Shown: positions 26,845-29,607 of the stretch, piece after piece
Position numbering within the stretch: position 1 is the first letter of the stretch
Layout: every line of letters begins with the position of its first letter
Assembly (NCBI GenBank): GCA_048882325.1
Contig: JBHLRS010000039.1
Span: 1-29,608 of the forward strand
Reading direction: 5' to 3'
DNA from: Candidatus Thorarchaeota archaeon
GTDB taxonomy: Archaea; Asgardarchaeota; Thorarchaeia; Thorarchaeales; Thorarchaeaceae
DNA: 29,608 bases
The notes under the pieces: model-generated
Told to the model about the DNA's origin: nothing
The model's input: only the letters and a program-made list of their open reading frames with translations
Databases searched by the model: none
Made by a program: the position numbers and the translations under genes

Positions 26845-29607
26845 TCAAGGGGGAACTTCTATCCCGGCACCACTTAGTAGGCCTTCTGCAAAGCTAATAA
26901 CACTCGCAACAGGATCACCGAAATTGAATGCGAATTCTATATGGCTAGATAGCCCCATAAATACGATATCAGCACTGAGTTCAACAGTTTGGTTTCTTAC
27001 ATCGGTGAAATTAGCTTCAAAACTGGCAGATGTAATGTTGAACACACCTCCCAATCCCCATTCCACAACGAATTGTGTTAGTGATGAGAATCCCGAGACC
27101 ACTGCCCTCGCAACAACAATTGCTCCTTCTGCGACCTTCAATGCAGCCCAAGCAATAGCCCGAGCTGCTACAAGAGCAATCACCCTGGGGTCTAGTGCTG
27201 GATCAGCTATAACCACAATTGCCTGTGCAATTTTCAAAGCAGTCTTCGCGACTTCAAGAACAGCCCATGCTGCAACTCGTGCTACTCCCAATGCACCAAT
27301 TGCCACATATTGTGCAGTGATTTCTGCTGAGCGCCAACCAACCTCAAATACTAGCTGTGGCCACTTCCAAGCCTTTTCCCACCAGGGAGAACTGTAGTAC
27401 CAGTTATTCCACCATCGTATTTGGGAATTGAGGGTGTTTATTCTTGAATAGCAAGCATTGATTTGTCCATCAATCTTGTTGACCTCATTTTGGGCAGCAG
27501 TAACAGCATTTTGGGCTTCTACCAGACCAGCTATCACTGCATCTTGCTCCCTTTCAACGATTTCAATCATTGCTTGTATTTGCTTATCCCAGTCTACAAC
27601 CGCCTCCTGAGCCTTGATTAAATCGTTTTGGGCTGTGGTTAGTCCATCGACAGCAGATTTGGTAACGTCCTGGATGAATTTCAGGAGATTCTCACGGATA
27701 TAGTCGAGTAAGTCATTCTTCATGTAGACTTTCAGGTAGATGCCCTCACCCGAACCGCTGAATAGATTGTCGATATCAGGACCGCGGACATCTAGGGATG
27801 CCTCGAACAGATCAACAATACTGCAACCAGCTAGGATATCAAATCCATGCTGATCAATGTTGATATCCACTAGGCCCTTCATGAATCCTCCAAAAATACT
27901 GATTGCTCCATTAACTATCAGGTGAGGATTGTATGACGATTTCCGAATGTCCAAGTCCAGTACTGCACCCTTCTTACTGTCGCTAGCAGAGGTCAGCTTA
28001 ATTATCTCTAATCCATCTATTGAGATGTTGATAGGATCGATTGCTGCAACAATATGCATTCCTTCATCCGGGTCCAACAGTGCTCCTGCGAAAATTCTGG
28101 TGCCGAATAAGTTCAGACCAGCTTGCATGCGAAGACCCTTTTCGTAGCTGACTCCACCAACGGTGATATCATCGAGAGCATAGTGAAAATGAACATCTTC
28201 CATTGATATCCCCTCTAAGAATTCAATGAATGGTTCTGGAATGGCAACTGCTATTGCGGACAGGAGTGACCTAACAACAGTACCAATGTTCAATTCGTTG
28301 AATTGGATACTCAGCAAATCAATTGTTGGCCAACTCACGCGTAGAGCGACACTCCCCGAAAACGATCCGAGAGTCACGCCTGCCACGAAACCAACTATAG
28401 GTGAGAGCGGCAACGAAAAGCCCAAATCTACTCCAAGATTGTCAAAGGTGAATCCTTTCAAACCAAATGGATCCTTCCATGCTTCCCTCATGTATGCTGA
28501 GAGTATCAGTGATGGTGGAGGACCAGTTTCCAAGCTGATTGTACCCTCTAAAGGCAGACATTCCTCACCAATCAGCAAATCAATGGCAGCTCCAACTTTC
28601 ACCTTATAGTCTCCGTCTTCATACTCGAACCCAAAGAGGTATCCTTTGAGGATGAGAAAATCTACAAGGGCTACTTCGAGTGAAGATCGTGCATCCAACT
28701 TGATCGCGAACGGGCTTGGGTTGATACTTCCAGCAATTTTCAGAGAATCAACATTCAGTACATCTGTAATCAATCCATCATTGAATGTTGCTTGAAAGTT
28801 GATTCCCTTTTCAATGTCTTTGGTAATACTCGTTGTTTGCAATGGTTGTAGTGATTCATAGAGTGAGGCTTTCATCTCTTCAGTTGAAATAAACAACACA
28901 GGATCTGATACGGCCTTTGAAACGTGTTCGGAAAGCATTGGCGCACCTAGAATACTAAGAACATTGTCGAGTTCCATTGGCAAGACAACAATCATCATCT
29001 TCTTTCTCTTTTCGGGCTCTTCTGCAGTCTGTGCAGAGTCTTCTGTGGTCGGTTCACTTTCTTCTGTAGTCTGTTCGGATTCTTCCGTGGTCTGTTCAGC
29101 TTCTTTTACGAACAGGGTGGGATGATCCATGATGGCAAACTCGACATCACCAATACTCGTTGTAATCATTGCTGAAAATAAGGACATATCCGGAACTATC
29201 TTTATTGAAGCATTTGTGAGCTCTAACGCCCCTAGTTCCGACAATCCTGTGGGCGCTGTAAGATTGAAAAGCTTGAGGCAATCTCCAGCAAAAGCTGTTA
29301 GATTGACCGAGAGTGGAATGCTTCCTTTTAGCTCAAAGAGATCAGATTCTCCAGGGTACTTGAACTCCAGAGTAATTGGCAAAGCACCCACAGAGAGGAT
29401 GCCTTGCACATGCACTGAATAGACCATCTGATCGAAGGAGTCTGTAGTTTCAATTATCTTAATCTTCACGTCACTGAGAGGTAGATCTACACCAGGTATT
29501 GAGAAACCAGCCTCCGATTCGATGGTGAATTCCTTTGTCTTGAGAGAATACAAGATAGAAAGTTCCACTTCTTGGCTGGTTGGTGATGAAAACCTGTCAA
29601 TTACATC
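26845..29607 (-). CDS. 5'-truncated large uncharacterised protein: extended beta-strand region plus long helical hairpin with Trp-rich tip
   Basis: The frame stays open upstream of GTG 29568 to the window edge (DVIDRFSSPTSQEV), so the protein is at least about 920 aa. Alternating amphipathic beta-strands, then heptad-like helices around WWNNWYYSSPWWEKAWKWP. Confidence 0.85.
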   Translation of the reverse strand, partial: DVIDRFSSPTSQEVELSILYSLKTKEFTIESEAGFSIPGVDLPLSDVKIKIIETTDSFDQMVYSVHVQGILSVGALPITLEFKYPGESDLFELKGSIPLSVNLTAFAGDCLKLFNLTAPTGLSELGALELTNASIKIVPDMSLFSAMITTSIGDVEFAIMDHPTLFVKEAEQTTEESEQTTEESEPTTEDSAQTAEEPEKRKKMMIVVLPMELDNVLSILGAPMLSEHVSKAVSDPVLFISTEEMKASLYESLQPLQTTSITKDIEKGINFQATFNDGLITDVLNVDSLKIAGSINPSPFAIKLDARSSLEVALVDFLILKGYLFGFEYEDGDYKVKVGAAIDLLIGEECLPLEGTISLETGPPPSLILSAYMREAWKDPFGLKGFTFDNLGVDLGFSLPLSPIVGFVAGVTLGSFSGSVALRVSWPTIDLLSIQFNELNIGTVVRSLLSAIAVAIPEPFIEFLEGISMEDVHFHYALDDITVGGVSYEKGLRMQAGLNLFGTRIFAGALLDPDEGMHIVAAIDPINISIDGLEIIKLTSASDSKKGAVLDLDIRKSSYNPHLIVNGAISIFGGFMKGLVDINIDQHGFDILAGCSIVDLFEASLDVRGPDIDNLFSGSGEGIYLKVYMKNDLLDYIRENLLKFIQDVTKSAVDGLTTAQNDLIKAQEAVVDWDKQIQAMIEIVEREQDAVIAGLVEAQNAVTAAQNEVNKIDGQINACYSRINTLNSQIRWWNNWYYSSPWWEKAWKWPQLVFEVGWRSAEITAQYVAIGALGVARVAAWAVLEVAKTALKIAQAIVVIADPALDPRVIALVAARAIAWAALKVAEGAIVVARAVVSGFSSLTQFVVEWGLGGVFNITSASFEANFTDVRNQTVELSADIVFMGLSSHIEFAFNFGDPVASVISFAEGLLSGAGIEVPP
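29011..29103 (-). repeat. In-frame 21-bp tandem repeat (about 4.4 copies) encoding an acidic 7-aa repeat
   Basis: Plus-strand units ttcgggctcttctgcagtctg / tgcagagtcttctgtggtcgg / ttcactttcttctgtagtctg / ttcggattcttccgtggtctg / ttcagcttc encode EAEQTTEESEQTTEESEPTTEDSAQTAEEPE. Confidence 0.85.

Follow-up and report, generated by a model that had tools for sequence, protein, structure and literature searches.

An undescribed giant-protein family with a one-sided beta-sheet and a coiled-coil stalk, truncated at a Thorarchaeota contig end

What does a very large protein of amphipathic strands and a tryptophan-tipped helical hairpin do in an Asgard archaeon? The question is raised by one end of contig JBHLRS010000039.1 of a Candidatus Thorarchaeota archaeon (assembly GCA_048882325.1, 3.6 Mb in 89 contigs). 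The window analysed here (29,608 nt) is the entire contig (C39), and a reading frame of 920 codons plus stop stays open to the contig end (Table 1); its product, P0001, is called the window protein below. An initial annotation, made from the letters of the DNA, had seen in it an undescribed membrane-inserting spike on a lipid-groove body. We found that the frame is a genuine giant-protein gene truncated by the contig end and that its family has no name, curated model or solved relative. In six loci, a charged coiled-coil protein of 170–240 aa, here called the partner, is encoded upstream of the giant. We favour, with a probability of about 0.4, a cytoplasmic complex in which the stalk, clasped by the partner, serves as a spacer and the sheet attaches to a hydrophobic surface, either a membrane leaflet or lipid.

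An undescribed family of giant proteins

An exhaustive phmmer search with the window protein returned 499 clusters at E ≤ 1e-3 and 78 at E ≤ 1e-30, with query residues 250–920 nearly always at the extreme C-terminus of proteins of 800–4962 aa. Common to the clusters is a C-terminal module in which a meander sheet of amphipathic strands is followed by a coiled-coil hairpin and by closing strands. Membership was judged by the meander sheet, a W-x5-W tip, a P-x-D-x-DPR kink and the closing strands, all of which are present in the window protein. The named members, all "hypothetical", come from Flammeovirgaceae, Lyngbya, Saccharophagus degradans, Lokiarchaeota and one eukaryotic transcriptome. Their N-terminal parts vary, with Laminin_G_3 (nine or five copies), PAN or Tectonin/Tachylectin domains in some relatives, and the N-termini of 25 full-length members consist of polar amphipathic helices, with neither a signal peptide nor a hydrophobic stretch.

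Searches of Pfam (hmmscan at E ≤ 1 for the window protein, E ≤ 0.1 for the full-length relatives P0002, P0004 and P0007, and E ≤ 0.001 for six more members), NCBIfam, PADLOC and PHROGs gave no family match, merely coiled-coil noise (DUF1664, JetC, LmuB, SbcC). The PDB, searched by sequence with phmmer and a profile of the sheet, gave no match, and a scan of viral contigs with the window protein found no relative. Published descriptions from Asgard or other archaea were likewise not found in the literature, where only an unrelated START-domain paper turned up. The suspicion that this is an undescribed machine has thus held against curated models, solved structures and characterised families.

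Homologue alignments begin at query residues 1–4; therefore, the 5′ end of the gene is missing from the contig rather than absent from the gene. That the gene runs beyond the window had been stated initially and is borne out by the relatives, which extend past the N-terminal end of the window protein. Close relatives are either about 1010 or about 1455 aa in length, and those of the second class carry four additional repeats of ~115 aa, so that the window protein lacks either ~110 or ~555 residues. A tblastn search with relatives through all 89 contigs found neither the missing 5′ part of the giant nor a partner gene, both of which would be located past the contig end. The closest relatives (49–63% identity) come from metagenome-assembled genomes (MAGs) named Thorarchaeota, Sifarchaeia and "Promethearchaeota", and among the genes of this genome is one for a true actin (441 bits). 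Because of the Thorarchaeota and Sifarchaeia homologues and this actin, the host can be taken as the Asgard archaeon that the initial annotation had thought probable.

The family is patchily distributed across Asgard archaea and bacteria. A profile of the sheet matched one of the 201 genomes in a phylum-wide sample, namely the present one, and the protein query matched 2/87 genomes of the order and none of the 27 of the genus; the other matching genome in the order has a 1460-aa gene with a 240-aa partner. Since occurrence is sporadic and no neighbour besides the partner recurs, the module is better regarded as an accessory trait than as a housekeeping one. Eukaryotes are represented by a single case, a predicted protein of 4962–5039 aa (P0140/P0164) from the Artemidia motanka transcriptome in EukProt, which contains a PAN domain and ends in the module; it is either a eukaryotic gene or prokaryotic contamination.

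The amphipathic sheet

A model of the window protein obtained with AlphaFold2 (AF2) from a 131-row alignment reached a mean predicted local distance difference test (pLDDT) of 81.7. It places 40 strands between residues 16 and 630, followed by a 108-residue helix, a tip loop and return helices, and ends in strands (residues 856–895, pLDDT 86–91) and a last helix (residues 899–913). Model and sequence together recover the whole anatomy listed initially, i.e., more than 600 aa of one-sided strands, the heptad helix, the tip, the return helix and the late strands. Modelled alone, the sheet (residues 195–635) scored a pLDDT of 89.9 and a predicted template-modelling score (pTM) of 0.76, its strands grouped in runs of 10–12 between short helices. 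The two faces of the strands differ strongly: over the 34 strands of at least six residues, mean Kyte-Doolittle hydropathy was +2.27 on the hydrophobic face and −0.62 on the other.

Table 1. Features of the truncated giant-protein gene and of neighbouring genes, in window coordinates
Feature	Residues	Position	Strand	Basis or remark
C-terminal 920 codons of the giant, plus stop		26845..29607	-	reading frame, homologue alignments
Last N-terminal beta/helix repeat unit: strands and two short helices	1-168	29104..29607	-
Acidic low-confidence insert of E/Q/T/S heptapeptides	169-202	29002..29103	-
21-bp tandem repeat encoding the insert		29018-29105		4.2 copies, 76% matches
Conserved meander sheet, antiparallel and amphipathic, with ~26 strands 6-16 residues long	203-630	27718..29001	-
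Outgoing heptad helix, 108 residues, ~16 nm	631-738	27394..27717	-
Trp-rich tip WWNNWYYSSPWWEKAWKWP, 7 W in 19	732-750	27358..27414	-
Tip-to-kink return helix, wide Ala/Val face	745-798	27214..27375	-	predicted partner-binding site, mapped from the P0007 hairpin
DPALDPRV kink; family consensus P-x-D-x-D-P-R	802-809	27181..27204	-
Kink-to-base return helix	807-850	27058..27189	-	most hydrophobic segment, pLDDT 55-68
Three closing strands and terminal helix	856-920	26848..27042	-	true C-terminus in nearly all relatives
Convergent neighbour, 415 aa		25210-26457	+
NAD-dependent DNA ligase, bacterial type		21891-23948	-	adenylation, OB, HhH and BRCT domains; E 1e-87

The first 168 residues correspond to residues 576 onward of 1458-aa relatives and 112 onward of 1009-aa relatives. 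The acidic insert, which is missing from the relative P0002, is a clade- or strain-specific disordered loop within the sheet.

Very long antiparallel meanders with one hydrophobic face are likewise found in the repeating-beta-groove (RBG) proteins AsmA, TamB, YhdP and VPS13 and in the beta-belt of ApoB100, and the initial annotation had drawn on the likeness to RBG proteins for its lipid-groove body. On a bridge-like reading, the sheet would form a hydrophobic groove in which lipids slide between two membranes. The nearest fold likenesses lean the same way: for the whole model, the best Foldseek match was the ApoB100 lipid belt (E 4.7e-4, prob 0.57, template-modelling (TM) score 0.11), and for the sheet, the top match in BFVD was a mimivirus Chorein_N protein (E 0.013, prob 0.41), neither of them significant. 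Neither the whole model nor the sheet alone had a significant or domain-covering match to any family, and the searches with the sheet returned barrel walls at a root-mean-square deviation (rmsd) of ~20 Å, with no solved RBG protein among the top 50 matches.

The differences from RBG proteins are numerous. AsmA, AsmA_2, TamB/DUF490, DUF748, DUF3971 and Chorein_N gave no Pfam match to the window protein even at E ≤ 1, nor to its relatives, and NCBIfam gave none. RBG repeats consist of five strands and a crossing loop, unlike the runs of 10–12 strands seen here. The full-length members lack an N-terminal anchor or signal, the fold matches have TM scores of only 0.11–0.15, and the giant carries a coiled-coil stalk and has a partner. 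The giant, moreover, would lie in the cytoplasm of a host with a single membrane, and occurrence in 2/87 genomes of an order would be odd for bulk lipid transport. We consider a bridge-like lipid-transfer role very unlikely. Outer-membrane beta-barrels (VDAC/Tom40, porins, TonB-dependent receptors) are no closer: an rmsd of 17–22 Å shows that the model does not form a closed barrel like theirs, and the full-length members have no signal peptide. Archaea have no outer membrane, yet the family occurs in them.

The stalk and its partner

At the tip of the hairpin, the clustering of tryptophan noticed initially stands out against a Trp frequency of 0.8% in the rest of the protein (P ~8e-11 per window of this length, ~7e-8 over all windows). 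Two of these residues are conserved throughout the family, W736 in 84/95 and W742 in 76/102 members. The two arms of the stalk are unequal. Apart from a two-position hydrophobic heptad stripe, the outgoing helix is polar, in contrast to the return arm, where four to five of the seven heptad positions are hydrophobic; this asymmetry of a narrow and a wide stripe is kept across the family. The return arm, correctly described as Ala/Val-rich (24.5% Ala, 17% Val), is interrupted by the DPALDPRV kink. Its hydrophobicity attains a Kyte-Doolittle value of 1.8 per 19-residue window in the clade of the window protein; family-wide, the arm is 20% charged and just 19/115 members exceed 1.5. In the window protein, uncharged stretches of the return arm (residues 745–850) reach 14 aa at most.

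As a side observation, a separate group of secreted proteobacterial proteins of ~800 aa with signal peptides (P0106, P0117, P0120) shares only the hairpin with the family, joined to a different beta-rich N-terminal part. Their tip motif is near-identical to that of the family (SW-x-RWY...PWY-x-KSW-x-W...YE-x-GWR), and their kink reads TPID-x-DPR.

The partner lies immediately upstream of the giant in three Thorarchaeota loci (L002, L003, L013) and in Flammeovirgaceae (L004), overlaps the start of the giant in Lokiarchaeota (L007), and is separated from it by one extra gene in Saccharophagus degradans 2-40 (L014:3445-11028, CP000282). In the latter, the order is a 176-aa partner, a 606-aa protein without Pfam match and a 1675-aa giant annotated as "chromosome segregation ATPase-like". 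Over their full length, the partners of the four lineages can be aligned, and DPR is invariant among them. Their layout repeats that of the giant stalk, i.e., helix, aromatic apex, helix, P-x-D-x-DPR kink, helix, so that the partner is best interpreted as the stalk in miniature. The apex is of the W-x2-W-[YF] type in the bacterial and Loki partners and W-x3-F in S. degradans; the partner of the Loki giant P0040, a giant with a Trp-less tip, has the apex WKQWY. A profile-profile comparison of partner and giant hairpin scored weakly (64% probability over 41 columns), and the case for paralogy therefore rests on the shared architecture together with the tip and DPR motifs. Extra genes upstream of the giant, coding for 606 aa in S. 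degradans and 751 aa in Lyngbya, proved mutually unrelated.

To see how the two proteins might fit together, we predicted the complex of two cognate proteins of locus L002, namely the hairpin of P0007 and the partner P0011. The interaction prediction score from aligned errors (ipSAE) was 0.71, compared with 0.00 for the best of three controls; in a benchmark, the mark applied to this score was attained by 58/80 solved complexes and by 2/110 mismatched pairs. At least 37% of the contacts were common to the runs, and the pLDDT of the partner was at least 75. The predicted interface covers hairpin residues 117–176 of P0007, equivalent to about residues 741–800 of the window protein, which comprise the return helix from tip to kink together with the latter half of the Trp tip. 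The DPR region of the partner is predicted to touch the tip of the giant, and the apex of the partner to touch the giant just before its kink, which amounts to a predicted antiparallel, tip-to-kink arrangement of the partner on the stalk.

Thiolase and DUF35 genes flank the giant-partner pair in the three Thorarchaeota loci. This synteny is not conserved in the window, where the gene downstream of the giant encodes a 415-aa protein without Pfam match and not the thiolase. The family of this convergent neighbour is multi-copy (up to three copies per genome, 27–38% identity within the genus) and often sits on short contigs; it also varies within the genus, and the contig end can accordingly be taken as a variable region. 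Further along, the window contains a DNA ligase of bacterial type in this Asgard genome (Table 1).

Two paralogous hairpin proteins bring to mind bipartite alpha-pore-forming toxins (alpha-PFTs), and a two-component membrane attack of the YaxAB/XaxAB or Smh kind, or an abortive-infection effector, has to be weighed. The partner would then act as a chaperone or inhibitor and keep the hairpin covered, and the tip and Ala/Val arm, once released, would enter the cell's own or a target membrane. The conserved aromatic tip, the hydrophobic return arm within the clade, the sporadic distribution, the placement of the gene in a variable region and the lectin-type N-terminal domains of some relatives would all suit such an effector. 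The giant nevertheless lacks any sequence match to YaxAB/XaxAB, Smh, Ahl or ClyA, its partner is highly charged, and its more than 600 aa of beta-sheet have no counterpart in those toxins. Its longest uncharged stretch falls short of the ~20 uncharged residues needed to span a membrane, and the arm typical of the family is 20% charged. Fold matches to toxins were tied with those to chemoreceptors, SMC and Vipp1, under the informative level for helical proteins, and PADLOC yielded coiled-coil noise alone. We also found no signal peptide in the full-length members and, in seven genomic contexts, no secretion, lysis or injection genes, although any release may be non-classical. Membrane attack is thus an unlikely reading, and the membrane-inserting spike proposed initially is weakened by the regular charges along the return arm, by the small share of strongly hydrophobic arms in the family and by the predicted burial of the tip and distal return helix against the partner in the cognate pair of a relative.

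What the two-gene module may do

Arm lengths were measured in 57 members with clear anchor residues and turned out to be quantised: the outgoing arm spans 105, 144 or 183 residues and the tip-to-kink segment 65, 104 or 143, the two being correlated at r = 0.94, with the kink-to-base helix constant at 45 residues. A self-period of 39 residues is present in both arms of the window protein, and its outgoing arm comprises two 39-residue repeats (12/39 identical). These steps suggest that the stalk is a spacer of set length made from 39-residue rungs. The length of the partner does not scale with that of the stalk, and the partner therefore probably covers a fixed apical part.

Such lengths, together with the conserved tip, recall the arms of SMC/Rad50 and the hairpin of chemoreceptors (methyl-accepting chemotaxis proteins, MCP), which resemble the stalk of the giant in topology if, as we propose, both ends of the stalk are stitched into the sheet. 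They could point to a lipid-free cytoplasmic scaffold in which sheets stack or pair, and stalks of defined length, with tips for docking, connect the units or keep something at a constant spacing. The predicted docking is reciprocal, from tip to kink, and no membrane-targeting feature was found in the full-length members, both of which would fit a scaffold. So would a locus on one Asgard metagenome contig (L008:3211-14405), where actin, profilin and a 3134-aa member follow each other on one strand, a linkage that is a single case. This member combines nine Laminin_G_3 domains with the C-terminal module and has no adjoining mini-hairpin partner. A scaffold would leave the one-sided hydrophobicity of ~40 strands unexplained unless the sheets pair, and a gene so sporadic is hardly expected to be a core cytoskeletal part; this explanation, too, we consider unlikely.

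The reading we prefer, a cytoplasmic complex with a lipid-facing sheet and a partner-clasped spacer, would make the giant the large subunit of a two-protein module. An antiparallel coiled-coil stalk of ~16 nm would rise from the long one-sided antiparallel sheet, and the small paralogous hairpin is predicted to lie antiparallel on the distal half of this stalk, its DPR kink capping the Trp tip of the giant and its own tip reaching toward the DPR kink of the giant. Inside the resulting four-helix bundle, the tip and the broad hydrophobic side of the return helix would both become buried. With the partner clasped over it, the tip would be a docking knob, and the working surface would be the amphipathic sheet, most likely applied from the cytoplasmic side to a membrane leaflet or a lipid body. 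A stalk capped in this way fits better than a naked spike because the wide face of the return arm suits the core of a four-helix bundle, because the asymmetry of the arms is family-wide and extreme hydrophobicity is limited to 19/115 members, and because the tip is conserved as a specific motif and not as generic greasiness.

Several observations speak against this preferred reading. The Lyngbya and LamG-fused members have no adjoining partner, and Trp is missing at the aligned tip of the Lyngbya (P0027) and Loki (P0040) giants. The predicted pair comes from a relative, whose giant is 52–54% identical, and not from the partner of the window genome itself, and predictors readily lay coiled coils side by side. 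The kink-to-base helix, the most hydrophobic part of the stalk, falls outside the predicted interface, leaving its cover unexplained. As to the sheet, the only ground for the membrane link is the composition of the protein, and its hydrophobic face could be exposed, self-folded or paired with another copy.

A bolder variant would add a switch to the clasp. The module would then be a new type of membrane machine, gated by the partner and without kinship to known RBG proteins, fusogens or pore-formers. Its sheet would sit on or carry lipid, and once the mini-hairpin came off, the tip and the hydrophobic return arm could insert into a second membrane or tether it, with the 39-residue rungs determining how far away that membrane lies. 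We regard this as quite unlikely.

Altogether, these results describe an unnamed two-gene module in Asgard archaea, Bacteroidota, Gammaproteobacteria, Cyanobacteria and possibly one eukaryote. Since Saccharophagus degradans 2-40, which can be cultured, has a member, the function of the module is accessible to experiment. If the role were that of a scaffold, the combination of 39-residue rungs and tip-to-kink docking would constitute a new design for a stalk of set length. If a membrane or lipid role proved true, the few membrane-handling protein machines would gain a new architecture, and this in the lineage closest to eukaryotes.

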